64,000 nucleotides of DNA from a virus (lineage: Duplodnaviria; Caudoviricetes): the IMG/VR virus record IMGVR_UViG_3300029798_000001; one strand, given 5' to 3'. Numbering within the stretch: the first letter of the stretch is position 1; every line of letters begins with the position of its first letter. Shown piece by piece: positions 21,022-59,064 of the stretch. Made by a program: the position numbers and the translations under genes. The notes beneath the pieces are model-generated. The model ran no database searches, was not told the origin of the DNA, and saw only the letters and a program-made list of their open reading frames with translations.

Positions 21022-21624
21022 ATGAAATCAAAATATAGAAACAGAAAAAATCTTATCCTCACAGATTTTGACGGCGTCTGCGGTGATTGGGAATGGGCAT
21101 TTAATGTCTGGATGCAGGAGCACGGGTTTGAGGAAGTTCCGGGTAGCAAACTTAACTATGACATGAGTGTTCGCTATGGCATACCTAGAGAACAAGTAGT
21201 TAAACTAATACGAATCTTTAACGAAAGCGCCGCAATTGGATTTTTGCCGGCACAGCGCGATGCCATGTATTATGTCAAACGCCTACACGAGGAACACGGA
21301 TACAAATTCCACTGTATTACTAGTTTAAGTTTGGACCCTAATGCGCAGAGATTGCGTGAAATGAATATCCACAAAATGTTTGGCCCAACAGCATTTGAAA
21401 GAATTGTATGCCTAGACACCGGAGCACACAAGGATGAAGCTCTTGAAGAGTACGAAGGTACTGGTTTGTATTGGATTGAGGACAAAATTGAAAATGCTGA
21501 GGCCGGTTACCGAGCAGGTTTAAAATGTTTGCTCATGGAACACGGCCACAACATGCACCACTATCATCCTAGTATAACACTCGTAAAAAACTGGAAACAC
21601 ATTTACGAGTTAATTACTCAGTAA
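21022..21624 (+). CDS. HAD-superfamily phosphatase (5'-nucleotidase-like)
   Basis: LILTDFDGV motif I; CITS; WIEDKIENA. Confidence 0.8.
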   Translation: MKSKYRNRKNLILTDFDGVCGDWEWAFNVWMQEHGFEEVPGSKLNYDMSVRYGIPREQVVKLIRIFNESAAIGFLPAQRDAMYYVKRLHEEHGYKFHCITSLSLDPNAQRLREMNIHKMFGPTAFERIVCLDTGAHKDEALEEYEGTGLYWIEDKIENAEAGYRAGLKCLLMEHGHNMHHYHPSITLVKNWKHIYELITQ

Positions 21625-22591
21625 CACCACAGGTAGTATTGCAGGCATATATTTGATGTTGATCATTCCAGGTTTGTTCAACGCGATCAAACCAACTGAT
21701 AGCCTGCTCGATTCCCACTTCAATGGCATTATTGTTTTCAGGTAACAATCGTTTGATCCCGGGATTACCGGTATGATTCATAACTCTAGGATAAAAACCC
21801 AGCCAACAGCAAGGGTATATTTCGCCGGTTGCACTGACATACAAAGATTTCGATCGTTTAACTTGACATTTAATTGGTTTAGGCTCAACCACCGGGTCTA
21901 TTAGATTATTTCTGCGTGAGCCTTCCCACCACGCGACTTTTTCTTCCCAATTTTTTGGCTCAATATTTTCACCTATATCATGCGAAAATTCTCGGTTACG
22001 ATTAAAAACTGAAAATTGATTTCGTCCGTGGTCTACCAGTTCAAATCTTTTGAATCCTAACTGTTCACTTAATTTGCGGCATTCCTCAATTTGATGTAGG
22101 TTGTGGTCAAATTTAATCATTGTCCAGATTGCGTTTCCGCCTGCGGCAATAAATTTTTGAGCATTTTTTAAAATAAAATTATAATCTGTATACTGTCTGT
22201 ATAATTGATGAGTGTCTTCCAGGCCGTCAATTCTAAAAAACACCGTAACATTCAATTTCCCTAGTGGCTCCCATATTGCTGGTTTGGCACTGGCATTGGT
22301 AGATATTGTTAGATATAGTTTAGGATTTTGTTTTAAGAAATACTCAACAATTTTCAACCCATCACGGGCTGTAACAAAATCTCCGAGATTGCCGTTTATA
22401 TTGATACTTTTTAACTGCTGTAAAAAACTGGGTTGAAAAATAGTTTGAGCTTCTGCCAAAGTCATATCATGGATAGGATAATCGTCAACGATATCAACCC
22501 CACCCATATTTCGCGGACATCCGGGACAACCAGCGTTACATCTAGTTGAAATTTCTAAGTGTACAGCTCTGATTTCAGAATAAGAATACAT
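21614..22591 (-). CDS. radical SAM protein with C-terminal SPASM/twitch-like domain
   Basis: CNAGCPGC CxxxCxxC motif; C-terminal C...G.IYPCC...C..TC. Confidence 0.9.
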   Translation of the reverse strand: MYSYSEIRAVHLEISTRCNAGCPGCPRNMGGVDIVDDYPIHDMTLAEAQTIFQPSFLQQLKSININGNLGDFVTARDGLKIVEYFLKQNPKLYLTISTNASAKPAIWEPLGKLNVTVFFRIDGLEDTHQLYRQYTDYNFILKNAQKFIAAGGNAIWTMIKFDHNLHQIEECRKLSEQLGFKRFELVDHGRNQFSVFNRNREFSHDIGENIEPKNWEEKVAWWEGSRRNNLIDPVVEPKPIKCQVKRSKSLYVSATGEIYPCCWLGFYPRVMNHTGNPGIKRLLPENNNAIEVGIEQAISWFDRVEQTWNDQHQIYACNTTCGVTE

Positions 22592-23068: not shown

Positions 23069-23806
23069 CTATTCGTCGGCGTAGAGTTTGAGAATATCCT
23101 TGATCATTGGGTGACGTTGAACGTCACGATCATCAAGATTACATACAGAAATACCGTTTACACCTCCTTTCTGTAATCTTTCGCATAAATCTACGAGGCC
23201 GTTACTGCCCTTACTGTGGTCTGCTTGTTCAGCATCACCTGTTATTACTATCTTACTACCTTCCCCAATACGGGTCATAAGCATCAATACCTGTGCTTTT
23301 GAGCTATTTTGAAATTCGTCAGCAATAATATACGCACTTTTGAAAGTACGGCCCCTCATAAATCCCAAGGGTGCAATCTCGATGGTCTGATCTTCAAGCA
23401 TGGCAGCAATATCCTGTGGCCTGTAATACTCTCTAAGTATATCAGTTAGTGGGCGTACCCACGGATCCATCTTTTGATTTAAGTCGCCTGGTAAAAAGCC
23501 ATGCTTCTCACCTTCTACTCCAACTGCTGGTCGCGTTAATACAATGCGATCTACTTCTCCGGCTCTGAACGCCTTTACTGCTGCTAGCATGGCCAAATAT
23601 GTCTTTCCTGTTCCTGCAGGCCCTGCTGTAACGACAATATGCTGACTATCGTCTTGTAAAGCCAATACTAACTTTTCCTGATTTCTAGTTCTAGGAACTA
23701 TGTTAATCGGGCGTTGTTTTACTGGTTTTACTTGATCGAAGCGAATTGTATTTTCTTGGTATGTCATACGGCTTTTTTGTGATTTTACTGCTCGTTGCTT
23801 ACTCAT
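23069..23806 (-). CDS. phoH: PhoH-family ATPase
   Basis: GPAGTGKT, LTRPAV, GFLPGDL..KMDPW, MRGRTF, DEFQN, GD..Q.D. Confidence 0.95.
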   Translation of the reverse strand: MSKQRAVKSQKSRMTYQENTIRFDQVKPVKQRPINIVPRTRNQEKLVLALQDDSQHIVVTAGPAGTGKTYLAMLAAVKAFRAGEVDRIVLTRPAVGVEGEKHGFLPGDLNQKMDPWVRPLTDILREYYRPQDIAAMLEDQTIEIAPLGFMRGRTFKSAYIIADEFQNSSKAQVLMLMTRIGEGSKIVITGDAEQADHSKGSNGLVDLCERLQKGGVNGISVCNLDDRDVQRHPMIKDILKLYADE

Positions 23807-25127: not shown

Positions 25128-25811
25128 ATGAATCTAAAAAGTTTTGGATGTAGTTTTATCTTTGGCAGTGAATTAGCCGATGACGGTCGTGATAGTTTGT
25201 ACGCTACGCCTAGCCAATTAACTTGGCCAGCGCACCTGTCTCGGCACCTAGCAAAAGAATACCAATGTTATGCTAGACCCGGTGCCGGCAATTTACACAT
25301 CCTTGAACAATTATTAAATCAAGCAGCTATTAGCAATAACTCTGATTTGTTTGTTGTTGGATGGACTTGGATTGATCGCTTTGATTACTATCCTGCTAAC
25401 CCAGACACTCCTAGCCGAAGCCCGTGGCGTACTATTATGCCGGTGGATAAAGATTTATTGGCTAAAACATATTATCGAGAGTTACACTCAGAATATCGAG
25501 ATAAATTTACCTCGTTGAGTTATATAAAGTTAGCCATAGATACACTTAATCAAAAAGGTATTCCGTTTATTATGACCTACATGGATTATCTGCTATTTGA
25601 TCAACAATGGCATACTACCCCGGCTGTTATGGATTTACAAGAATATATTAAACCGTACCTGACTACTTTTGAAAATAAAACTTTTTTAGAATGGAGTCGT
25701 AGTCGAGCATATCCAGAAACAATAGCATGGCATCCACTAGAGGCTGCACATGCTGCAGCTGGCGAATATATGATTAAAGTTTTTGATAAACAAAATACAA
25801 TCGATCGTTAG
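25128..25811 (+). CDS. hypothetical protein, SGNH-like
   Basis: FGCSFIFGSEL, GAGN, HPLEAAH. Confidence 0.6.
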   Translation: MNLKSFGCSFIFGSELADDGRDSLYATPSQLTWPAHLSRHLAKEYQCYARPGAGNLHILEQLLNQAAISNNSDLFVVGWTWIDRFDYYPANPDTPSRSPWRTIMPVDKDLLAKTYYRELHSEYRDKFTSLSYIKLAIDTLNQKGIPFIMTYMDYLLFDQQWHTTPAVMDLQEYIKPYLTTFENKTFLEWSRSRAYPETIAWHPLEAAHAAAGEYMIKVFDKQNTIDR

Positions 25812-26502
25812 CATCCTTCTTAAACTCTAATAATTTAAGATTATACTTTTCAGCAAAGTCAGTTACCACTTCAAAACTCCACGGAAAAAGTTCTACATAT
25901 GGACCAGTTTTATGTGTAATACCCGGATTGGCTCTTAGGTAAAATCTACCACCCGGTTCTAGCAAATCTACGCAATGGCTAAATCGAGCCTCGATCTCAT
26001 CTCGACTATTAAAGTTAATTGACCCCAACGCAATAATAACATCGTGCTTATGCTTAACCTTGTAATCTAAAATATCAACTTGGAAATCAGCGTGATCGTT
26101 GTAGGGATCGATGCCCACTAGATTTTGTATACGGCCTTTGAACGGATGATATCCACACCCAACATCTAATACATTTTTAGGGTTAAGTCTGTTGACTTCA
26201 TCAACTAATTGCCAGCCAGTGTGATTATAGTCATCCGTGCGCGGTTTCCAAATTTCACCAAAAAAGCGTAGAATGTAACGTTCGCTAATGGTGTCTACAA
26301 TATCAAGTAGTGGGCCATTGAATGCACAATCTTCCAAGGCAAGTTCTGCTTCTACATGATCCTTAAATTTGCGATAGCGAGCAGGGGTCCACGGTAGCAG
26401 ATCTACTACTGTATCCTTGTTGATAACAATGTTTTTATACTTGGGTAAATTAAAGGTTGTTGTTAAATTTTCTTTAATTAGGTTAAAAATTTTGGTATTC
26501 AT
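25774..26502 (-). CDS. class I SAM-dependent methyltransferase with N-terminal ACP-like helical domain
   Basis: VLDVGCG, GIDP, LLEPGGRF. Confidence 0.8.
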   Translation of the reverse strand: MNTKIFNLIKENLTTTFNLPKYKNIVINKDTVVDLLPWTPARYRKFKDHVEAELALEDCAFNGPLLDIVDTISERYILRFFGEIWKPRTDDYNHTGWQLVDEVNRLNPKNVLDVGCGYHPFKGRIQNLVGIDPYNDHADFQVDILDYKVKHKHDVIIALGSINFNSRDEIEARFSHCVDLLEPGGRFYLRANPGITHKTGPYVELFPWSFEVVTDFAEKYNLKLLEFKKDANDRLYFVYQKL

Positions 26503-26593
26503 TGAAATTTTCCGTTAAATGATAAATAAATTTACAAAGAGCTTAAAAATTTTAAGTATCTTGTAATTCATGATAACTATTTAAGGAGATTAT

Positions 26594-27289
26594 ATGAACT
26601 CAAAAGATTTCGTTGCCAAGATCGTGGCAGACAACCAAGCACTATTCCAAGCTAGTCAACACAATGTTAAAGCATACTTTGACAGCAAACCAGCTCAATC
26701 TGAGCTAGTAGACCACTTTATTGGCCGCATGGTCAATGAGCGCATGAACATGGTTGAAATCAGCCAAGCTATTGCCCAAATGCCTGCTGATGCAGATCCT
26801 GTAGAATTGCAGTTGCTTACACAGCAGGCCGCTGATGAAGCTGTTCATTTCCGTATGGTTAAAGAAGTTATTGAACACATCACCGGTGCTCCAGTTGATG
26901 TTGAGGCCGCCATCGCTCGTGAAGCCGCCAAGCCAACAGCCAAAGGTGCTGGTTTGTTAGCCAAGTATGAAGCAGAGTCAGATCCAGTTGCTCTTGCCGC
27001 TTATCAGTTGGTTGCCGAAGGTCGTGCCGAAGCTGTTTGGAACACAATGGCTGAGTGTATTGAAGACGAATTTGTTTCCAAGTCATATGCTAAGATTGCC
27101 AAGGACGAGGGTTTCCACAGCAAGATTGGTGCTCGCAAGTTAGAGCAGTTAGTTACAGACGCAGAAGTTGCTGCTAAAGTTGAAACTTTGGTTGCCGCTA
27201 TGCGTAAAGACTTGTATGAAATTTCATGCAAAAATACTGTAGCCGCTGAGTCTGGCAAGCAATTAGTAGCAGACGCTTACGGGTGGTAA
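26594..27289 (+). CDS. ferritin-like diiron protein
   Basis: E...DEAVH...E...DEGFH, paired ExxH diiron motifs. Confidence 0.8.
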   Translation: MNSKDFVAKIVADNQALFQASQHNVKAYFDSKPAQSELVDHFIGRMVNERMNMVEISQAIAQMPADADPVELQLLTQQAADEAVHFRMVKEVIEHITGAPVDVEAAIAREAAKPTAKGAGLLAKYEAESDPVALAAYQLVAEGRAEAVWNTMAECIEDEFVSKSYAKIAKDEGFHSKIGARKLEQLVTDAEVAAKVETLVAAMRKDLYEISCKNTVAAESGKQLVADAYGW

Positions 27290-27292
27290 TCG

Positions 27293-27844
27293 TTGAAGAT
27301 AGGATTAACACAACGAATCCTATATCATAACGGGCAAGCGTATGACGCCACTCAACACGGGTGGTATTCATACTTAACGGGTCATACGCTTGTTCCAATC
27401 GCAAACAGAATAGATCAAGATTTTGAGCAGTTGGCAGTAGATTTAGACGCCGTAATTATCACAGGTGGGGACGATTCAGCTCTTCGCCGCACAGTAGAAT
27501 TAAAGTTAGCAGGAGCGATGGCCTTACGCAAGAAACCAGTGGTTGGTGTTTGTCATGGTTGTTTTTTGTTAACAGAAGTATTGGGTGGCACGGTAGTAGA
27601 CATAGTAGGGCATCATAACACCGCTCACAATATAAACTATTTTGGAGAACTGATAGCGGTTAATAGCTATCATACTTTAGCAATCACGGAATTGCATAAA
27701 TCTGGCACGGTGCTAGCCACAGATGAAGAAGGCAATTGTGAAGCCTGGATTGATGGAGCAACAGCAGGGGTAGTATGGCATCCAGAGCGTATGAAAGACG
27801 CATGGTTACCGGACGAAATTAAAAATTTATTATTCAAGGACTAA
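27293..27844 (+). CDS. class I glutamine amidotransferase-like (peptidase C26/PuuD-like)
   Basis: ITGG, GVCHG nucleophile, VNSYH, WHPE; TTG start. Confidence 0.88.
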   Translation: MKIGLTQRILYHNGQAYDATQHGWYSYLTGHTLVPIANRIDQDFEQLAVDLDAVIITGGDDSALRRTVELKLAGAMALRKKPVVGVCHGCFLLTEVLGGTVVDIVGHHNTAHNINYFGELIAVNSYHTLAITELHKSGTVLATDEEGNCEAWIDGATAGVVWHPERMKDAWLPDEIKNLLFKD

Positions 27845-27845
27845 A

Positions 27846-28820
27846 ATGAAAAAGTTATTATCAGTATTATTATTGTTGCCAGCATTGGCATTTGCGTGGG
27901 AACCCACAAAGCCAGTTGTGGTTATTGTGGGTAATACCCCAGGGGCTGGAAACGAAATCGCGTTTCGCAAACTAGCAGAGATTGTTCAAAAGAAGAATCC
28001 CAAGTTTGTGTATGTAGTGGAAAATCGCCCGGGTGCTGATTCGGTAGTAGCGCAGAATCATTTTATACAACAGCCAGCGGATGGCTACACTATTAACTTG
28101 CCTAGTCATATGAGCACTTATGTTACCAATGACATTTGGGAAGCAAAGACCAAGAAGTTCCAATACGATAGTTTCATTGATGTGTTGACCATGGGCAAAA
28201 GTCCGTTAGCACTAGTTGCCAGTCCGTTAAGCCGTGTTGATACACCATTGGATTTTGTTCGGTTAATTGCTACAACACAGAAACCTATTAATATTGCTGT
28301 AGGCGGTGGTGCTCATAGAACAGCATTTGAATACCTAATGACCAAGAACAACGGCAAGACAGAGTTTATCAAACCTATCAAGTTTAACGGCCCATTGCCA
28401 GCAGTGATTAGTGTATCGGCATTTGATGGTAAAGATGGCACAGAGTTTGGTATCATGCCTATCGCTGTGGCCCGGCCCTTGGTAGAAGCAAAGAAAGTTA
28501 AAATCATTGGCTTCACTGGAAATAGAATAATGTCACAGTATCCCGATGTTCCATTGTTGAACACAGTAGCGCCTGGTATCAATGTATATGCCGCTTGGTC
28601 AATAGAGTTGCCAAAAGGCACGCCGGATGATGTAGTGGCCTGGTATCAAAAGAACTTTGCAGACGCTGTTCGCAGTGAAGAATATAGAGAATGGCGTAGA
28701 CAAAATGTAGTATTTTATGATGAATCTGAACTAACACCGGCAGGGTTAAAGAAACATATTGAAGAACTTCGCGCTACATTTTTACCAGTGCTACAACGAA
28801 TCGACCTAAGTAAAGAATGA
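27846..28820 (+). CDS. tripartite tricarboxylate transporter substrate-binding protein (Bug/TctC family)
   Basis: Signal peptide; VVENRPGA, PADGYT, YPDVPLL, LPKGTPDDVV. Confidence 0.88.
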   Translation: MKKLLSVLLLLPALAFAWEPTKPVVVIVGNTPGAGNEIAFRKLAEIVQKKNPKFVYVVENRPGADSVVAQNHFIQQPADGYTINLPSHMSTYVTNDIWEAKTKKFQYDSFIDVLTMGKSPLALVASPLSRVDTPLDFVRLIATTQKPINIAVGGGAHRTAFEYLMTKNNGKTEFIKPIKFNGPLPAVISVSAFDGKDGTEFGIMPIAVARPLVEAKKVKIIGFTGNRIMSQYPDVPLLNTVAPGINVYAAWSIELPKGTPDDVVAWYQKNFADAVRSEEYREWRRQNVVFYDESELTPAGLKKHIEELRATFLPVLQRIDLSKE

Positions 28821-29434
28821 AATATATCTTTTGTGCCGGTGCTCCTGGCAGTAAATGGAGCAGTTTGATCAAAAACATCTACTATAGTCCTAGTGTTGAT
28901 CGCACAGACTATACAGAAGCTAGAACATATTGGCATGATGCTCCGGGACAACTTGAGCTTATGCATCTAGGTGCTTACTTTGATCCGGGTATGGAGTTTG
29001 ATTTGCCGGCGGATCTAAGCACTTTGAGTCAGGCTGAACTGGAACGCCGCTTTGACGAGCCATTCTCAGGTAAAGGTGTGCGTATTATAAAGAGTCATAT
29101 ATTTGCACACAACATTGACTTTTTACGTCACACCTGGCCTGATGCTCCTATTATTCTAGCACAACGTGGTGATGATGCTTGTTTAGGTTGGTGGGTCAAG
29201 TGTGGGCACTTTAATATTACCTACCCAAGCTACGATAAGTATTATAAAGATTTACGGACCATGTCAGGAATTATCGCCGACCAAAATCGCGATATACAGA
29301 CAGCGTGGAACAAATATGAAGGTATGATGCCCACAGACAACTTTGCCTTGGCACATATACTAGGTATTCTGCCGGTGCCGGCAGAATATAAACAGAACTA
29401 CAACAAATCAGACCTAGGAGTAAAAGTAATATGA
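28817..29434 (+). CDS. hypothetical protein, sulfotransferase-like P-loop
   Basis: YIFCAGAPGSKWSS N-terminal loop; IIKSH. Confidence 0.5.
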   Translation: MKYIFCAGAPGSKWSSLIKNIYYSPSVDRTDYTEARTYWHDAPGQLELMHLGAYFDPGMEFDLPADLSTLSQAELERRFDEPFSGKGVRIIKSHIFAHNIDFLRHTWPDAPIILAQRGDDACLGWWVKCGHFNITYPSYDKYYKDLRTMSGIIADQNRDIQTAWNKYEGMMPTDNFALAHILGILPVPAEYKQNYNKSDLGVKVI

Positions 29435-30102
29435 CAACATTAAGCAGTTATGATCGACTTAAAGAAATCAGTGAGTATCATTTTGACACTGATCGTATGG
29501 ACCCATGTTGGGACACAGTTGTCCAGCTAGGGCATGTCGCAGGAGATTTTTCAACAGATGTCGCAGATATTCTAGCACAGGCCAAGCCAGCTAACTGGGA
29601 GACACGCGGATTCAAAGGTGAAGGCGTAGAAGTTCCTAGTGACGAACTGGTCAACGAAGAATACGACCTAGAACGTGTAGGCATTGATCCTAAAGTTGTA
29701 ATTACGGATCTGGCTTGGAAATTAAGTCCTAGACTACAAGCACTAAGCGATCGTTTTGCCTTACGCGATGTAATGAATCGAATTCACGTGCAAAAGCCAG
29801 GACAGTTATGGCACCTGCATATTGACAAATTGTATAAATGGTTTCCCGAAGATCCTAGTCAAGTGTATCGGTTGTTTGTTCAACTAACTGACTGGCAACC
29901 TGGACAATTTTGGCAATACGGTAACTATAACTGGGCACAGTGGAAGGCTGGCAATGTAACCACATTTGACTGGAAGAACGTTCCACACTCAACAGCCAAT
30001 GCTGGATTCTATCCTAGAGTTACACTACAAATTACCGGAATTAGAACCGACGCAACAGATGCCTTTTTAGCTGAACTAAAATCGGGCACAGTTACTCTAT
30101 GA
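29431..30102 (+). CDS. 2OG-Fe(II) dioxygenase/cupin (AspH-like)
   Basis: HLHID...VPHSTAN...RVTLQITG, an HxD...H triad plus Arg. Confidence 0.7.
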   Translation: MTTLSSYDRLKEISEYHFDTDRMDPCWDTVVQLGHVAGDFSTDVADILAQAKPANWETRGFKGEGVEVPSDELVNEEYDLERVGIDPKVVITDLAWKLSPRLQALSDRFALRDVMNRIHVQKPGQLWHLHIDKLYKWFPEDPSQVYRLFVQLTDWQPGQFWQYGNYNWAQWKAGNVTTFDWKNVPHSTANAGFYPRVTLQITGIRTDATDAFLAELKSGTVTL

Positions 30103-30749
30103 AGAAGTTATTAATTGTTACTGGGCCGCAGGGCTCTGGTAACCATTTGTTTAGTCGACTGCTAAGTTTACATCCAGCTGTTGAAGGTTGGGAAGAACTA
30201 TTAGACAAGTATTGGGTACCCAGTGATCAAGAGCCCTTTGCTGAATACTGGGTATATCCAGAACGTTTAACAGCAGATGTGTTTGCAGGCAAGGATTATT
30301 TCTTTGCCAATGTCAGTTGCCCATTCTTTTACGATGGCACAAGACGTATACCCAAAATTCTGGAAGTTGCGGAGCTGGCCCGGAGCTTTGGGATAGAAGT
30401 AGAAATTGCTATTGTTGTTCGTGATCAAAACATCAACCGGGAACAGCAGTTACGTATTCGCAAAGAGCACACAACTCCTATAGCGCAGGACTATTATTAT
30501 AATGCCCTATTGCCTAGCGAGTTTCCTGTTCACTATATCGATCACGAAGCATTTTTCTTACATACAACGCACTACCTAAAATGGTTAAGTCGTATACTTG
30601 CATTTCCTATTGCGTATAATGATCCAGATATAATGAAATTTATTAGCGAGGATGCCAATCACAAATATATAAAGTATGTTGACCATCACTGGTTAGACGA
30701 AGAAATACTTCGTGGATCGCACACTACACTAGCAGAAAGAACAAAATGA
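30099..30749 (+). CDS. sulfotransferase-like P-loop protein
   Basis: LLIVTGPQGSGNHLFSRLLSLHP; IVVRD. Confidence 0.55.
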   Translation: MKKLLIVTGPQGSGNHLFSRLLSLHPAVEGWEELLDKYWVPSDQEPFAEYWVYPERLTADVFAGKDYFFANVSCPFFYDGTRRIPKILEVAELARSFGIEVEIAIVVRDQNINREQQLRIRKEHTTPIAQDYYYNALLPSEFPVHYIDHEAFFLHTTHYLKWLSRILAFPIAYNDPDIMKFISEDANHKYIKYVDHHWLDEEILRGSHTTLAERTK

Positions 30750-31582
30750 CACAACGTATACTCATCATGGGGTTACCGGGTTCCGGCAAAACAACACTAG
30801 CAGGCGCTCTTAAACGGTATCTAGAAGCCAATGGCGAGATTAGTTATGCTCGTGCATTAACAGAACCAATGGATAGTAGTATAATGGTGAACTGGTTTAA
30901 TGCTGATGACATCCGCCGCAAGTATAACGACTGGGACTTTAGCAATGACGGGCGCATTCGCCAGAGTATCCGTATGTTCCAGTTTAGTATGGAATCCGGC
31001 GGCGATTATGTCATCTGCGACTTTGTTGCTCCCCTGGTCGAACAGCGTAACAATTTCAAAGCTGACTGGACCATCTGGGTCGATACAATCCGCGAAGGTC
31101 GTTACGAAGACACCAATAAAGCATTTGTAGAACCTGAGCAGTATGACTTCCGAATTACAGAACAAGATTGCGAAAAGTGGGCTGAATTTATCGGAGAGCA
31201 TATTGTTGCTAATCGCCGTCGTCCTGTATTTGATTGGCAAGCCGAAAGTGCCTTGTTACTTGGAAGATATCAGCCCTGGCACGACGGACACAGAGCACTA
31301 TTTGACCGTGCTATTGCCAAATCCGGACAGGTGATTATTCAAGTTCGTAATTGCCAAGGATGGAATGGATCTAATCCATTTGAATTTGAGAAAGTTAAAT
31401 CATTTATTAAACGCGATCTTGACCCGGTATATCAAGGGCAATACGAAATAATGCTAGTTCCTAATATAACTGAAATTGTATATGGAAGAGATGTAGGTTA
31501 TAAGATAACGCAAGAAACATTTGATGATAAAATACACTCTATCTCTGCTACAAAAATCCGTAAGGAGTTAGGAATTGAGTGA
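30746..31582 (+). CDS. adenylylsulfate kinase (CysC-like) fused to an HxGH nucleotidyltransferase domain
   Basis: MGLPGSGKTT, NADDIRR, DFS..GR; C-terminal GRYQPWHDGH and ISATKIR. Confidence 0.8.
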   Translation: MTQRILIMGLPGSGKTTLAGALKRYLEANGEISYARALTEPMDSSIMVNWFNADDIRRKYNDWDFSNDGRIRQSIRMFQFSMESGGDYVICDFVAPLVEQRNNFKADWTIWVDTIREGRYEDTNKAFVEPEQYDFRITEQDCEKWAEFIGEHIVANRRRPVFDWQAESALLLGRYQPWHDGHRALFDRAIAKSGQVIIQVRNCQGWNGSNPFEFEKVKSFIKRDLDPVYQGQYEIMLVPNITEIVYGRDVGYKITQETFDDKIHSISATKIRKELGIE

Positions 31583-31781
31583 TTCCAAAAGTCGTAGCCT
31601 GGTAAAAACTATTAGTTGGCGTTTAACTGGTAGTTTTTCTACTTTTCTAATTTCTTTTATTATTTTGGGTAATTTTACTATAGCAGGATCAATTGCTGTG
31701 ATCCAAATTATAGCTAATACCACGTTATATTACATACATGAACGATTTTGGGACCGTATTACTTGGGGTAAACGTAACTAA
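31575..31781 (+). CDS. small membrane protein (DUF2061-like)
   Basis: RSLVKTISWR...YYIHERFW; TTG start. Confidence 0.75.
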   Translation: MSDSKSRSLVKTISWRLTGSFSTFLISFIILGNFTIAGSIAVIQIIANTTLYYIHERFWDRITWGKRN

Positions 31782-31808
31782 ATATTGGTATCGACGGAGC
31801 ACAATACC

Positions 31809-32420
31809 ATGGAAATTAGACAAGATCAACTCGCACAAATCCTACCCGGCAACGCCTACATAGAACACTGGACGGATGCTTTAAACAAGATTCTACCCGA
31901 CTATGACATCACTACACCACAGCGTGTGGCCGCCTTTTTAGGTGAAACCTATGTGGAAAGTGCTGGTTATACAGCCCTACACGAAAACTTGAACTACACA
32001 GCACAGAGTCTTTGCCGTGTATGGCCCAGCCATTTTACCGCAGATATTGCTGACCAATACGCACACAATCCCGAACGCATTGCCAATCGTGCCTATGCTG
32101 GCCGTATGGGCAACGGTGACGAAGCGTCAGGTGATGGATGGAATTATTGCGGTCGCGGACTTATTCAGATTACTGGCCGCAACAACTATCAGGCCTTTGC
32201 AGATAGCCTACAGATGAACATTGCGGATGTTCCTGCCTTCCTACAAACATTTGAAGGTGCTATACAATCAGCGACCGCATTTTGGGAAACCAATAATCTT
32301 AATCAGTTTGCAGATAGTTGGAACATTCAAAAGCTAAGTATTAAGATCAATGGCGGAGAGTTGGGCTTACCAGAGCGTATTGCTCAATGTAACCATGCAC
32401 TTCAAGTATTAAACACGTAA
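31809..32420 (+). CDS. glycoside hydrolase family 19 endolysin
   Basis: AAFLGE..VES, ENLNY, IANRAYAGRMGNG, GRGLIQITGRNNY, INGG. Confidence 0.9.
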   Translation: MEIRQDQLAQILPGNAYIEHWTDALNKILPDYDITTPQRVAAFLGETYVESAGYTALHENLNYTAQSLCRVWPSHFTADIADQYAHNPERIANRAYAGRMGNGDEASGDGWNYCGRGLIQITGRNNYQAFADSLQMNIADVPAFLQTFEGAIQSATAFWETNNLNQFADSWNIQKLSIKINGGELGLPERIAQCNHALQVLNT

Positions 32421-32422
32421 TT

Positions 32423-32557
32423 ATGACAATAGCATTTTTATATCGATGGACTCAAAAATCTACAGGAATGTGGTATGAAGGCTCACGGACTGCTAACGGT
32501 AAAGAAATGGATATCGATAATTTTAATAAATGGCTTAAGCGACAAGGAAGTGCATAA
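32423..32557 (+). pseudogene. GIY-YIG homing endonuclease remnant (44 aa)
   Basis: MTIAFLYRWTQKSTGMWYEGSRTA is a Seg-like GIY-YIG N-terminus, followed almost at once by a stop. Confidence 0.6.
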
Positions 32558-33039
32558 TGTTAGATATTATCATAAAATACGCAGTTGGTGGTTTTCCAAT
32601 TTGGATGTGGCCTGCCTGTGCCGGCGGCAGTGCTGTGATATATTTTTTATTTCATGTTCTTAGTTCGTTACCACAAATTCGTCCATATGCTTTTTTAATC
32701 AAACCAGTCAGTGCTATTGTGTTTATGATTAGTATTTTTATGTATGGTGGTGCTGGAGTAGATGCCATCTATAAAGCGGCATTTAAAGAACAACAACAGC
32801 AACTTGAGCTGGCCCAACAGGCCAGCACCGATGCTACAAAACAGTTAACAGATGCTTTGGCCGCCAATGAACATTTAGTCAAAGGCCGTAATTATGGAGT
32901 TAGTCAAATTATTATAAAAGACACAACCAAGATCAACGCAGATTGTAATCGAATCAACAACGATGCCTGGGAAGATTATAATCGTGCGGTAAAAAATACA
33001 GGTAGCAAACAATTGCCTGCTGCAGGAGCCAAACAATGA
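32557..33039 (+). CDS. membrane protein with coiled-coil, possible inner-membrane spanin
   Basis: N-terminal TM segments, helical C-terminus, next to endolysin and a lipoprotein. Confidence 0.5.
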   Translation: MLDIIIKYAVGGFPIWMWPACAGGSAVIYFLFHVLSSLPQIRPYAFLIKPVSAIVFMISIFMYGGAGVDAIYKAAFKEQQQQLELAQQASTDATKQLTDALAANEHLVKGRNYGVSQIIIKDTTKINADCNRINNDAWEDYNRAVKNTGSKQLPAAGAKQ

Positions 33040-33305
33040 AACAATTAATTGTTATTTTTGTATTTTTATTGACCGCTTGCGCCAACAATAAACCACCTGC
33101 TATTCCCAACTGGCCAACTGTGCCTGCTGATCTGCAACAGCCTGCTGCGGATCTAACACCCCTGGGCGCCAACCAGCATAATTTGTCCGATTTGATCAGC
33201 AATTCAAACGACAATTACACTCAATACTATATTTTAAAAGAAAAGTATGAAGGCTGGCAAAATTGGTATAATGGTCAACAAAAGATATGGCAAGGTCTTA
33301 AATGA
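33036..33305 (+). CDS. lipoprotein, possible outer-membrane spanin
   Basis: Lipobox LTAC; Pro-rich N-part. Confidence 0.55.
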   Translation: MKQLIVIFVFLLTACANNKPPAIPNWPTVPADLQQPAADLTPLGANQHNLSDLISNSNDNYTQYYILKEKYEGWQNWYNGQQKIWQGLK

Positions 33306-33706
33306 AAAAGTTATTGTCGGCGGTATTTGTTCTTGCCCTCAACGGATGTGTTGCGTATGATGCTTACATGCTAACATCATTTGACTCAAATGAATACCAA
33401 CTAATGGCACAGATCCGTATTGATGCCAGGCATTTTGCCACCGCTTGTGCCAACCCTGTCATGGGCAAACCCAATGCTGTTGCCATGGCCAATGAAACAG
33501 AGCTGTTTGTGGCCTACAGCGAATACTTGCCACACAATAGCGATGCTGTCAACGCCGCTCGAGCATTGAATGAAATAGCACAAGGACTCAAAGATAGATA
33601 CAACTCGGGCGGTGCTGTTAGCCCGTTATTCTGCAGGTTAAAGTTCAACGGAATAGAACACAGCGCAGATTTAATACAACAAACCTTAGGAAATAGACCA
33701 AGATGA
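33302..33706 (+). CDS. putative lipoprotein
   Basis: Lipobox LNGC. Confidence 0.6.
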   Translation: MKKLLSAVFVLALNGCVAYDAYMLTSFDSNEYQLMAQIRIDARHFATACANPVMGKPNAVAMANETELFVAYSEYLPHNSDAVNAARALNEIAQGLKDRYNSGGAVSPLFCRLKFNGIEHSADLIQQTLGNRPR

Positions 33707-41083: not shown

Positions 41084-42055
41084 ATGAACTATCTTGTAAT
41101 ATATCCCGGCCGTTTTCACCCTTTTCATCGCGGACATCTAGCCAGCTACGAGTATCTGACTAAAAAATATGGGCCAGAAAATGTCTATATTGCTACTAGC
41201 GATGTACAAGCACCGATTACCAGTCCGTTTAGTTATAGCGATAAAGTAGCGATGATGACTAAGTTGGGTATCCCTGCTAGTCATATTGTGCTAGTTAAAA
41301 ATCCCTATCAGCCAAAAGAAATAACAGATAATTTGCCGGTGGAAGCAAAGAACGATACAGCATTAATATTTGCAGTCAGTGCCAAAGATGGAGATAGATT
41401 TACATTTGGTACTAAAAAGAATGGCGAGCCTAGTTACATTCAACCATTACCAGAAAATCTTAAACAATTACAACCGTTAACTAAACACGCTTATGTTGAT
41501 GTAACTCCTACAGTTAATTTTAAAATCCGAGGAGTAGATGCTAACAGTGCCAGCGAAGTCCGCAAAATGTATCTTAAAGGTAGCGACGCAGACCGTGATC
41601 AAATCATAACAGAATTATACGGTACATATTATCCAGAACTACGAGATATATTTGATAAAAAACTAGGCGTCACAGAACGGGCACAAGGATTTATTAAAGA
41701 AGCCCGTGCTAGTCGTCATCCTTGTGCTGTAATAATCCTGGAAAAAATGTTGCATTTAGAGCGCCTAGCATTAAACGAATATAACGGTATGGCAGAAGGT
41801 GAAGTGATACCCTTTCCTGGAAAAGCTATTCCGCCCGACTTAGACCAAGCACAAAAATTAGCCCGTGAATTAATTGATGCTGCCTACAATGGCCACGGTG
41901 ATCCTGGTCAAAAAACGGCAGATATACGGCAACAATTACAACGCATGGGTTATAGAGTCCGTGGTGCTGGGCGTGGATTTGAACTGGTAAATGATCGATA
42001 TACATTTAAGCAGTTAATTAAGCCCTTTGATTATCTCGAAGAAAAAAAGCATTAA
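41084..42055 (+). CDS. HxGH nucleotidyltransferase (cytidylyltransferase/NMNAT-like) with appended C-terminal module
   Basis: YPGRFHPFHRGH; extra module after LNEYNGMAE-G. Confidence 0.8.
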   Translation: MNYLVIYPGRFHPFHRGHLASYEYLTKKYGPENVYIATSDVQAPITSPFSYSDKVAMMTKLGIPASHIVLVKNPYQPKEITDNLPVEAKNDTALIFAVSAKDGDRFTFGTKKNGEPSYIQPLPENLKQLQPLTKHAYVDVTPTVNFKIRGVDANSASEVRKMYLKGSDADRDQIITELYGTYYPELRDIFDKKLGVTERAQGFIKEARASRHPCAVIILEKMLHLERLALNEYNGMAEGEVIPFPGKAIPPDLDQAQKLARELIDAAYNGHGDPGQKTADIRQQLQRMGYRVRGAGRGFELVNDRYTFKQLIKPFDYLEEKKH

Positions 42056-58803: not shown

Positions 58804-59064
58804 ATGTCAGACCGTATTTTTACAGCAGAAGAGACCAAAAAACTTAATCAAATCATAAATGAGGGAATTCAAGTCACAATGGAAATCGAAACTCTTCAAG
58901 GTGGATTAACTGATACCGTAAAAGCAATTTCGGAAGAACTCAACATTAAACCATCTATCCTCAAAAAAGCAATCCGCCTGGCACATAAATCAGAATTTGG
59001 CCGTGAGCAGGATGATCACAGTTTGCTCGAGCAAATACTTACACAAGTAGGTAAGACACTATAA
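58804..59064 (+). CDS. small helical protein, possibly T4 DsbA-like dsDNA-binding
   Basis: AGGAG RBS; VKAISEELNIKPSILKKAIRLAHK. Confidence 0.5.
   Translation: MSDRIFTAEETKKLNQIINEGIQVTMEIETLQGGLTDTVKAISEELNIKPSILKKAIRLAHKSEFGREQDDHSLLEQILTQVGKTL

Follow-up and report, generated by a model that had tools for sequence, protein, structure and literature searches.

The window examined here is a 64,000-nucleotide stretch of viral DNA (IMG/VR record IMGVR_UViG_3300029798_000001) from an uncultured freshwater T4-related jumbo phage, and positions 25774-31781 of it hold a cluster made up of a divergent methyltransferase gene (M) and eight translationally coupled plus-strand open reading frames (ORFs; o1 to o8). 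We propose, with a probability of roughly 0.4, that this cluster contains a mobile auxiliary-metabolism cassette of uncultured aquatic T4-related jumbo phages, which would take up a carboxylate and then hydroxylate, sulfate and methylate it. The cassette itself is real, abundant and mobile, and it recurs in thousands of aquatic phages. An earlier note, made from the letters alone, had described the eight coupled genes, flanked by the divergent methyltransferase, as an operon resembling a small-molecule biosynthetic cluster with its own periplasmic receptor, and had offered phage-phage signaling, host surface or virion modification, or nutrient capture as possible roles. The gene arrangement was borne out, and all of its family assignments held at the fold or profile level. 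Its observation was confirmed and its interpretation partly supported. The genes and their predicted products are as follows.

M, 25774..26502, minus strand: class I S-adenosylmethionine (SAM)-dependent methyltransferase; cassette core
F (o1), 26594..27289, plus strand: ferritin-like diiron-carboxylate protein; optional, paired with G
G (o2), 27293..27844, plus strand: stand-alone class I glutamine amidotransferase/peptidase C26-type gamma-glutamyl hydrolase; TTG start; optional
C (o3), 27846..28820, plus strand: periplasmic Bug/TctC-family solute-binding protein with a Sec signal peptide
S1 (o4, also ST1), 28817..29434, plus strand: sulfotransferase-fold enzyme; cassette core
O (o5), 29431..30102, plus strand: 2-oxoglutarate (2OG)/Fe(II)-dependent oxygenase; cassette core
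S2 (o6, also ST2), 30099..30749, plus strand: second sulfotransferase-like protein, unrelated to S1; optional
K (o7), 30746..31582, plus strand: adenosine 5'-phosphosulfate (APS)-kinase-like P-loop domain fused to a minimal HxGH nucleotidyltransferase resembling nicotinamide mononucleotide adenylyltransferase (NMNAT)
o8, 31575..31781, plus strand: DUF2061 small membrane protein; often follows K; not a partner of the cassette

A Three-Gene Core With Optional Partners

With S1 as the anchor, 80 related viral loci were retrieved, and the census was based on the 69 that cover M, S1 and O together. O was present in all 80 loci and adjoins S1 in nearly all of them, while M was found in 72, and the contigs that lack it are in many cases truncated. 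The co-occurrence of the genes elsewhere, which the earlier note had named as its own refutation check, was thus found. Over the 69 loci M, S1 and O formed an invariant core. The other genes were optional: a TctC-type binding protein was present in 52 loci (in nine, TctA and a divergent TctC replace or join it), S2 in 35, G in 36, F in 30, K in 22 and a cupin in 9. The commonest form, with M on one side and C, S1 and O on the other, accounted for 15 loci, and the full form seen in the window for 5. All 17 cassettes without a binding protein carry F, G and S2, a pattern which is suggestive of these three genes supplying internally what the transporter supplies from outside; the pattern is not a statistical one, since the loci are related. 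The census replaces the single eight-gene pathway that had been proposed with a three-gene core and optional modules. It also separates o7 and o8, previously counted as members, as a unit of their own, carried by more than 590 viral contigs of which most lack the cassette.

The block formed by M and the S1-O pair was found in at least four unrelated flanks (up3-up2-up1, Lys-Nuc, RNR-small and u24-u31-u47), and in the close relatives L007 and L052 up1 is directly followed by K with nothing between them. Because the flanks differ and these two relatives join up1 directly to K, the cassette behaves as an insertable unit. Moreover, S1 and the methyltransferase form one polypeptide in four representative proteins (P0132, P0150, P0161 and P0201), and residues 68-241 of M align with the C-terminal, methyltransferase half of P0132 at 40% identity (E 3e-44). 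That the genes also stay adjacent in unrelated contexts adds to the fusion, and together the two make a good case for a single target of M, S1 and O.

Some relatives carry further genes at the cassette. The lineage of L101-L107, L111, L115 and L142 has a Cupin_2 protein (E 1.5e-10) between G or K and S2, and a UDP-glucose/GDP-mannose dehydrogenase-like gene lies downstream (L111:9433-10233). In another context, a PP-loop ATPase (L088:7615-8223) is encoded shortly 3' of the cassette.

The Core Enzymes S1, O, and M

The AlphaFold model of S1 (205 residues; predicted local distance difference test score, pLDDT, 82) aligned best to the tyrosylprotein sulfotransferases TPST1/2, with Z 11.3 and a root-mean-square deviation of 3.5 over 165 residues (VIA), and adenylate kinases reached a Z of about 9.4. 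Two AFDB clusters named "sulfotransferase family" matched the model at E 1.5e-14, with template modelling (TM) scores of 0.77-0.79. By this model S1 has the alpha/beta sulfotransferase fold, which it has in common with the enzymes that depend on 3'-phosphoadenosine 5'-phosphosulfate (PAPS), such as TPST1/2, the CurM/OLS ST domains, and the Stf-type and Sulfotransfer_3 proteins. The loop A9-P-G-S-K-W-S-S16, S93-H94 within IIKSH, and R117..D120 are invariant in the family. These motifs lie where a sulfotransferase would have them: the phosphate-binding loop is N-terminal and follows strand 1, and a strand-Arg-x-x-Asp block occupies the site of the 3'-phosphate motif. The invariant His of IIKSH is reminiscent of the KTH catalytic motif of cytosolic SULT enzymes. 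The residues themselves deviate from the canonical PKxGTT and RDPxDxxxS; the loop reads APGSKWSS instead of PKxGTT(W/L), identity to known sulfotransferases is 13-14%, and S1 is much shorter than its matches of 275-390 residues. Searches of S1 against PHROG and NCBIfam gave nothing significant, and its family profile gave only chance-level matches to PDB sequences, with no sulfotransferase among them. The model suggests that S1 would transfer sulfate from PAPS.

At 90% identity the S1 family falls into 4278 clusters, drawn from freshwater and Tara Oceans data; none is named and none carries a Pfam domain. A protein search with S1 returned two unannotated marine single-cell virus records and nothing else. 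The contigs that encode distant S1 relatives show phage contexts only; in having been found only in phages, the family differs from the known sulfotransferases.

O was modeled as a double-stranded beta-helix oxygenase (pLDDT 87). The best PDB matches by Foldseek were the Pseudomonas putida prolyl 4-hydroxylase (P4H), the viral collagen P4H (vCPH) and AspH (E 4e-5 to 3e-4), and the AFDB matches were PhyH (E 9e-11, TM 0.61), JmjC (1e-8) and an Asp/Asn/Pro hydroxylase (8e-6). The iron triad and the basic residue, H130-x-D132, H186 and R196, were invariant in 24 homologues. O therefore shares with the P4H/AspH/PhyH hydroxylases the beta-helix, the HxD...H facial triad and an Arg ten residues past the distal His, and differs from them in having no Pfam family match and in TM scores of only 0.47-0.61. 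PHROG and NCBIfam likewise gave nothing significant for O, and its family profile reached only chance-level matches among PDB sequences. The assignment as a 2OG-Fe(II) dioxygenase was borne out by the model and the invariant HxD...H...R.

A scan of genome-collection contigs with the O profile found two contigs from metagenome-assembled genomes (MAGs; Chitinophagales and Haliscomenobacter); both are phage DNA, because the same phage flanking genes are present on them. No contigs other than those of phages were found to carry the S1 or O family. The two contigs (L160 and L161, from GTDB species-representative MAGs) hold the cassette together with the phage flanks up3 and up2, and are jumbo-phage DNA in bacterial bins. 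They reflect either mis-binning or a faint hint of a host within the Bacteroidota.

M gave a weak Pfam match to Methyltransf_23/25 (E 0.008), and its Atlas features placed it at 0.99 to viral AdoMet-MTase clusters, in agreement with its first description as a methyltransferase. DNA hypermodification, in which a base would be methylated, hydroxylated at the methyl group and activated by sulfation, was considered and set aside: no match of M is to a DNA C5, N4 or N6 methyltransferase, and the best matches of O are neither TET/JBP nor AlkB.

The Binding Protein and Transport

C matched Pfam TctC with E 3.2e-17 (63.4 bits against a cut-off of 27) and begins with the signal peptide MKKLLSVLLLLPALAFA, so that its description as a Bug/TctC solute-binding protein stands. 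Its PDB matches were TphC, the terephthalate-binding protein TBP and two uncharacterized TctC-family (UPF0065) proteins (E 1e-9 to 2e-8). The TctA and TctB partners had been reported missing from the window. No TctA was present among the cluster and neighboring ORFs scanned with Pfam, the remainder of the window not being scanned, and no TctB was seen in these scanned ORFs or in the relatives.

In nine related cassettes, the TctC slot is taken by TctA (479 residues, Pfam E 4e-91), followed by a 353-residue protein which keeps only the N-terminal TctC signature; this divergent TctA-linked binding protein was missed by Pfam. In L163, TctA, the divergent binding protein and an S1-M fusion stand in a row. 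Here the phage brings both a membrane channel and a binding protein, and it would therefore be importing something. C had been taken for a periplasmic receptor, with signaling among its possible roles, and the nine TctA cassettes make part of an uptake system the better reading. In the window only TctC is encoded, so the host TctAB would have to serve.

As in the tripartite tricarboxylate transporters (TTT; TctABC, with the Bug proteins, TphC and AdpC), C is a TctC-family protein with a signal peptide, and relatives of the cassette carry a full-length TctA adjoining a TctC-like gene. Unlike them, the genes are encoded by a phage and set within an enzyme cassette, no TctB was seen, and the absence of TctA here makes a host channel necessary. 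In cyanophages, the periplasmic binding protein PstS boosts uptake via the host transporter. C is similar in being a phage-encoded periplasmic binding protein which is presumed to raise uptake through a host transporter. It differs from cyanophage pstS in that the transporter is a TTT and not an ABC system, that C is co-inherited with tailoring enzymes and does not occur alone, and that some relatives of the cassette encode the membrane channel as well.

The Optional Enzymes S2, G, and F

The Atlas features of S2 lay at 0.94 to Sulfotransfer_3 clusters, 96-98% of whose members carry that domain, and to other sulfotransferase clusters. Its loop GPQGSGNH and R108-D109 are invariant. Searches of Pfam, PHROG, NCBIfam and PDB sequences gave nothing significant for S2, and a profile comparison found no detectable homology between S1 and S2 (hhalign probability 0.5%). 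The earlier note had expected a sulfotransferase fold in both P-loop ORFs. This was borne out for o4 at the level of the model, while o6 is a sulfotransferase-like protein by language-model features and motif only. S2 may sulfate an acceptor with PAPS.

G exceeded the Pfam cut-offs for both Peptidase_C26 (E 2.8e-13, 50.6 bits against 20.5) and GATase (E 3.8e-11, 43.4 bits against 22.8), and its triad Cys87-His163-Glu165 is invariant, as expected of the C26 hydrolase/class I glutamine amidotransferase that it had been called. The best PDB match was 3fij, the Lin1909 protein (E 1e-16). The best NCBIfam match was the gamma-glutamyl-CDP-amidate hydrolase NF045546 (E 9e-14); at 52 bits, G lies far under the cut-off of 250 for this Cj1417 equivalog.

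The Pfam matches of F to AurF, RNR-R2 and Ferritin_2 were all sub-threshold, and its family profile gave only chance-level matches to PDB sequences. Despite this, the diiron ligand set E49, E82xxH85, E142 (and E146) and E172xxH175 was invariant in 22 homologues, which agrees with the ferritin-like diiron enzyme proposed from the two ExxH motifs. The Atlas features of F led to viral "RNR-like" clusters and to AurF/DUF455/rubrerythrin clusters. A solved cyanobacterial protein (PDB 3fse) has a DJ-1/PfpI-like class I amidotransferase-fold domain fused to a ferritin-like domain, and it is a possible precedent for the pairing of F and G.

The Kinase Fusion K and the DUF2061 Protein

K corresponds over its full length to phrog_10255 (E 5e-50). 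The N-terminal domain (about residues 1-160) scored 28.9 bits against Pfam APS_kinase (cut-off 21.1), and the family profile matched APS kinases over residues 6-105 (2yvu with E 4e-6, PAPSS1, 7yq0 and 2gks). The alignment spans the P-loop, a DGDxxR-like block, the FS..R..R block and the FxxP strand, with NADDIR in place of DGDxxR and FVAP in place of FISP. Against TIGR00455, K reached 23 bits (cut-off 138.7). The domain matched APS kinases specifically and not nicotinamide riboside (NR) kinases.

The C-terminal portion of about 110 residues (about 168-278) contains GRYQPWHDGH...ISATKIR, of which GR(Y/W)QPWHxGH and ISATKIR are invariant in the family. Over residues 171-228 it matched NadM (2qjt, E 2e-6) and an archaeal NMNAT (1f9a, E 0.003), and against Pfam CTP_transf_like it scored 18.5 bits, slightly under the cut-off of 21. 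By its (T/H)xGH and ISxTxxR motifs and these matches, this domain is an NMNAT-like nucleotidyltransferase. The description of K as a CysC-like kinase fused to an HxGH nucleotidyltransferase was thus correct.

The further step, that ATP sulfurylase and APS kinase are joined here and make PAPS, was not borne out. The ATP-sulfurylase domain PF01747 was absent from the Pfam matches of o7, and no match at E<=0.01 was found in five cassette genomes, among which G006 and G007 hold full-length K (the control matched in 5 of 14 genomes). The catalytic domain of PF01747 covers about 212 positions, compared with about 110 residues in K. A minimal one-chain PAPS synthase is not supported by these comparisons, and by the tests applied the small HxGH domain is not an ATP sulfurylase, which corrects a tempting over-reading. 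Like bifunctional PAPS synthases, K has an APS-kinase-like N-terminal domain and a domain of the HxGH nucleotidyltransferase superfamily, and it is linked to sulfotransferase-like genes in several phages. It differs in the length and NMNAT-type signature (GRxQPxHxGH and ISxTxxR) of the second domain, in the existence of kinase-only variants, and in being widespread in phages without sulfotransferase-like genes.

An APS-kinase role of K in feeding the sulfotransferases is plausible from these motifs and from gene order. K stands at the cassette in several contexts, after O or S2, and lies inside it in one lineage (F-G-K-Cupin-S2-S1-O); a kinase-only variant adjoins the cassette in G009 and G013, and five of the six S1 genomes that are at least 90% complete also have the kinase domain. 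In our reading, topping up PAPS would be neither an obligatory nor the sole role of K.

It is also conceivable, and in our view somewhat unlikely, that K and DUF2061 have nothing to do with the cassette, being a nucleotide- or NAD-type salvage or anti-defense enzyme in a neighboring slot, with S1 and S2 using host PAPS or being no sulfotransferases at all. This alternative concerns the K part only. Most of the K-bearing viral contigs mentioned above have no cassette within 8 kb, and K with DUF2061 occurs in hundreds of cassette-free phages. S1 and S2 were absent from all three complete K-bearing genomes, in a search backed by a positive control, and the complete genome G011 has S1 and no K. 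In 56-kb Xylella and Stenotrophomonas siphophages, and likewise in Sanovirus phages, K homologues are flanked by a NADAR-domain gene on one side and a DNA methyltransferase gene on the other. The NadM- and NMNAT-like signature GRxQPxHxGH of the C-terminal domain points the same way. These findings also count against the sulfation scheme as a whole, and the main role of K may be unrelated to the cassette. On the other side, chance adjacency is a poor fit to the repeated occurrence of K, or of its kinase domain alone, next to or inside the cassette in several unrelated flanks, those of G009 and G013 included, and the N-terminal domain resembles APS kinases and not NR kinases.

The DUF2061 call for o8 was confirmed (Pfam E 8e-20), and the gene follows K in many cassette-free loci. 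Bacterial DUF2061 genes respond to iron limitation by induction or are part of Fur/SsoR regulons, as recorded for CC_0155 of Caulobacter (13-fold; PMC3751524) and SO_4740 of Shewanella (PMC12442407). No sulfur link for DUF2061 was found in the literature. A second HxGH nucleotidyltransferase gene lies 10 kb downstream of the cluster (41084-42055, plus strand; 323 residues; CTP_transf_like E 1.8e-5). It may encode a phage NadM-type NMNAT, which bears on the role of the small domain of o7.

Proposed Mechanism and Alternatives

In the mechanism that we propose, the phage TctC would bind a carboxylate-type solute in the periplasm, and import would follow via the host TctAB channel, or via the phage-encoded TctA in some relatives. 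O would hydroxylate, S1 would O-sulfate and M would methylate a single small carboxylate-bearing substrate, in an order that the scheme leaves free, and S2 would carry out a second sulfation of a hydroxyl with PAPS. F and G would perform an oxidative and an amide-cleaving step, and together with S2 they may make or unmask the substrate where the binding protein is missing. PAPS would be formed by the APS-kinase-like domain of K acting on host-made APS, while the NMNAT-like half of K and DUF2061 would belong to a wider phage unit whose main job is perhaps elsewhere. The phage would presumably benefit from the product. The analysis shows the folds, the catalytic motifs, the linkage of the genes across contexts and the S1-M fusion, whereas sulfotransfer, the supply of PAPS, the uptake, a small-molecule substrate and the gain to the phage are inferred.

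Several observations weigh against this mechanism. S1 had no Pfam match above the cut-off, the best being Sulfotransfer_3 with E 0.016 and 15.9 bits against 27. It lacks the canonical PKxGTT PAPS loop, and nucleoside monophosphate kinases score only about 2 Z units under the sulfotransferases for its model. The top structural match of S1, tyrosylprotein sulfotransferase, modifies proteins, and so do the prolyl and aspartyl hydroxylases that are the best PDB matches of O. For neither S1 nor O is there a cellular relative whose context is known and could lend a function. The related loci share ancestry, and their architecture counts are not independent events. Finally, that the acceptor is a small molecule is an assumption of the scheme.

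A macromolecular acceptor is the next reading to be weighed, and we judge it rather unlikely. The core enzymes would hydroxylate, O-sulfate and methylate a phage structural protein, a host protein, or an envelope or polysaccharide precursor, while the role of the TTT parts would be confined to providing a co-substrate, for instance 2-oxoglutarate or iron-citrate. The likeness of S1 to the protein-modifying TPST1/2 fits this reading, as does the likeness of O to the P. putida P4H (with EF-Tu), the viral collagen P4H, lysyl hydroxylase and AspH. A distant S1 relative is encoded in a 166-kb T4-like phage; its neighbor is a methyltransferase, and it belongs to a run of unknown genes (about 200-290 residues each) between the neck genes (gp13, gp14 and gp15) and a Laminin_G fiber-like protein. 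Since 2OG oxygenases cannot work without 2OG and Fe, and di- and tricarboxylates are ligands of TctC-type proteins, the supply of a co-substrate would also fit. However, fold likeness at 13-18% identity does not fix the class of substrate, and the AFDB match of O with the best E-value is PhyH, a small-molecule enzyme. In the census, the cassette was not accompanied by any candidate target gene, such as one for a collagen-like repeat or a precursor peptide. That it is paired so tightly and so often with a binding protein, and in some cases with a phage TctA, is explained more simply if the imported solute is itself the substrate, as in the mechanism proposed above.

A more specific version of that mechanism is a self-contained mobile "import-and-tailor" system, in which a phage-encoded TTT (TctC, in some cases with TctA) imports a specific dissolved organic acid, and hydroxylase, sulfotransferase and methyltransferase families found only in phages, using PAPS made by a phage APS kinase, turn it into a sulfated and methylated product with a role of its own in infection. 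Such a product would serve, for example, as a signal, as an inhibitor of competitors or of host defense, or as a cofactor. We consider this version unlikely as it stands.

Still less probable, in our estimate, is that S1 and S2 transfer a group other than sulfate from a PAPS-like 3'-phospho-nucleotide donor built by K and G. The model is the O-methyl-phosphoramidate (MeOPN) pathway of Campylobacter, which uses a nucleotidyltransferase, a C26 hydrolase and a CysC-like kinase, and then a transferase and a methyltransferase. In C. jejuni, the CysC-annotated Cj1415 is a cytidine diphosphoramidate kinase. The C. jejuni genes (Cj1415-Cj1418) and the cassette both cluster a C26-type hydrolase, a CysC-family kinase, a nucleotidyltransferase and a methyltransferase, and the logic of a 3'-phosphorylated nucleotide donor would be common to both. 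The best NCBIfam match of G is the gamma-glutamyl-CDP-amidate hydrolase of this pathway, K joins a nucleotidyltransferase to a CysC-family kinase with the same two-step logic, the order F-G-K-Cupin-S2-S1-O in one lineage places K within the cassette next to G, and the methyltransferase is a core member. The pathway intermediates are cited in PMC6429109. Against this reading, G scores far under the equivalog cut-off, no glutamine-kinase homologue of the PPDK_N type (PF01326) was found in five cassette-bearing phage genomes (the control matched in 13 of 14 genomes), and kinase-only variants of K lack the nucleotidyltransferase. G and K are dispensable, being present in 36 and 22 of the 69 loci, and S1, O and M persist without them.

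A hot-spot of unrelated accessory genes ("morons") without any pathway, to which the wide variation between relatives from M to K and the empty interval between up1 and K in L007 and L052 might point, is hardly credible given the same M...S1-O block with the same optional partners in at least four flanking contexts, the S1-M fusions and the translational coupling.

Relevance for Phage Metabolism

The enzyme superfamilies of the cassette are ordinary; the S1 and O families are unnamed. No description of the cassette was found in the literature on phage TTT, sulfotransferase or APS-kinase auxiliary genes. With more than 4000 S1 clusters at 90% identity that have no function name, a very common phage function is uncharacterized. 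The joining of an uptake system to tailoring enzymes offers an experimental handle, as the ligand of the phage TctC should be the substrate or a co-substrate of the pathway. If sulfation is true, phages run PAPS-dependent chemistry during infection, and sulfated metabolites or proteins join the things that viruses make in lakes and oceans. Should the more specific version with a dedicated imported acid hold, its product would be a phage-made metabolite of a new class, and the pathway would be the first one for sulfation in a phage.

Genomic Setting

The neighboring plus-strand ORFs of the cluster are separated by gaps of 1-3 bases or overlap by 4-8 bases, and M and o1 start on either side of an AT-rich gap of 91 bases. 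The window also encodes a family B DNA polymerase, PhoH, a large ATP-dependent protease and long polyproteins. Lake metagenomes from several separate studies contain almost identical copies of the stretch. In a DNA search against cultured phages, the region matched only at the endolysin. No T4 late promoter (TATAAATA) was found upstream of the operon; the single match in the window is at 59060, which is below the chance expectation. Among RNA data, no record was listed that contains the stretch or o4-o5.

Directly 3' of the cluster, the same operon continues past o8 into a lysis cassette (31785-33706, plus strand), which comprises an endolysin and two further genes.

GH19-type endolysin, 31785..32420, plus strand: 3 bases after o8; phrog_181, E 2.4e-70; context only
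32557-33039, plus strand: membrane protein with a coiled C-terminal half
33302-33706, plus strand: lipoprotein with the lipobox LNGC; candidate outer spanin

On the other side, the conserved upstream neighbor up1 (25128-25811, plus strand) starts with MNLKSFGCSFIFGSE, which resembles block I of the GDSL/SGNH proteins with Cys replacing Asp; up1 had no Pfam match. ORFs that resemble paralogues of up1, and a weak GDSL match (L151:8900-9778), recur around the cassette in relatives. Further upstream lie a radical SAM protein (21614-22591, minus strand; E 4e-5, under the cut-off) and PhoH (23069-23806, minus strand; E 1e-71), which in relatives is the usual left-hand neighbor of the up3-up2-up1 block.

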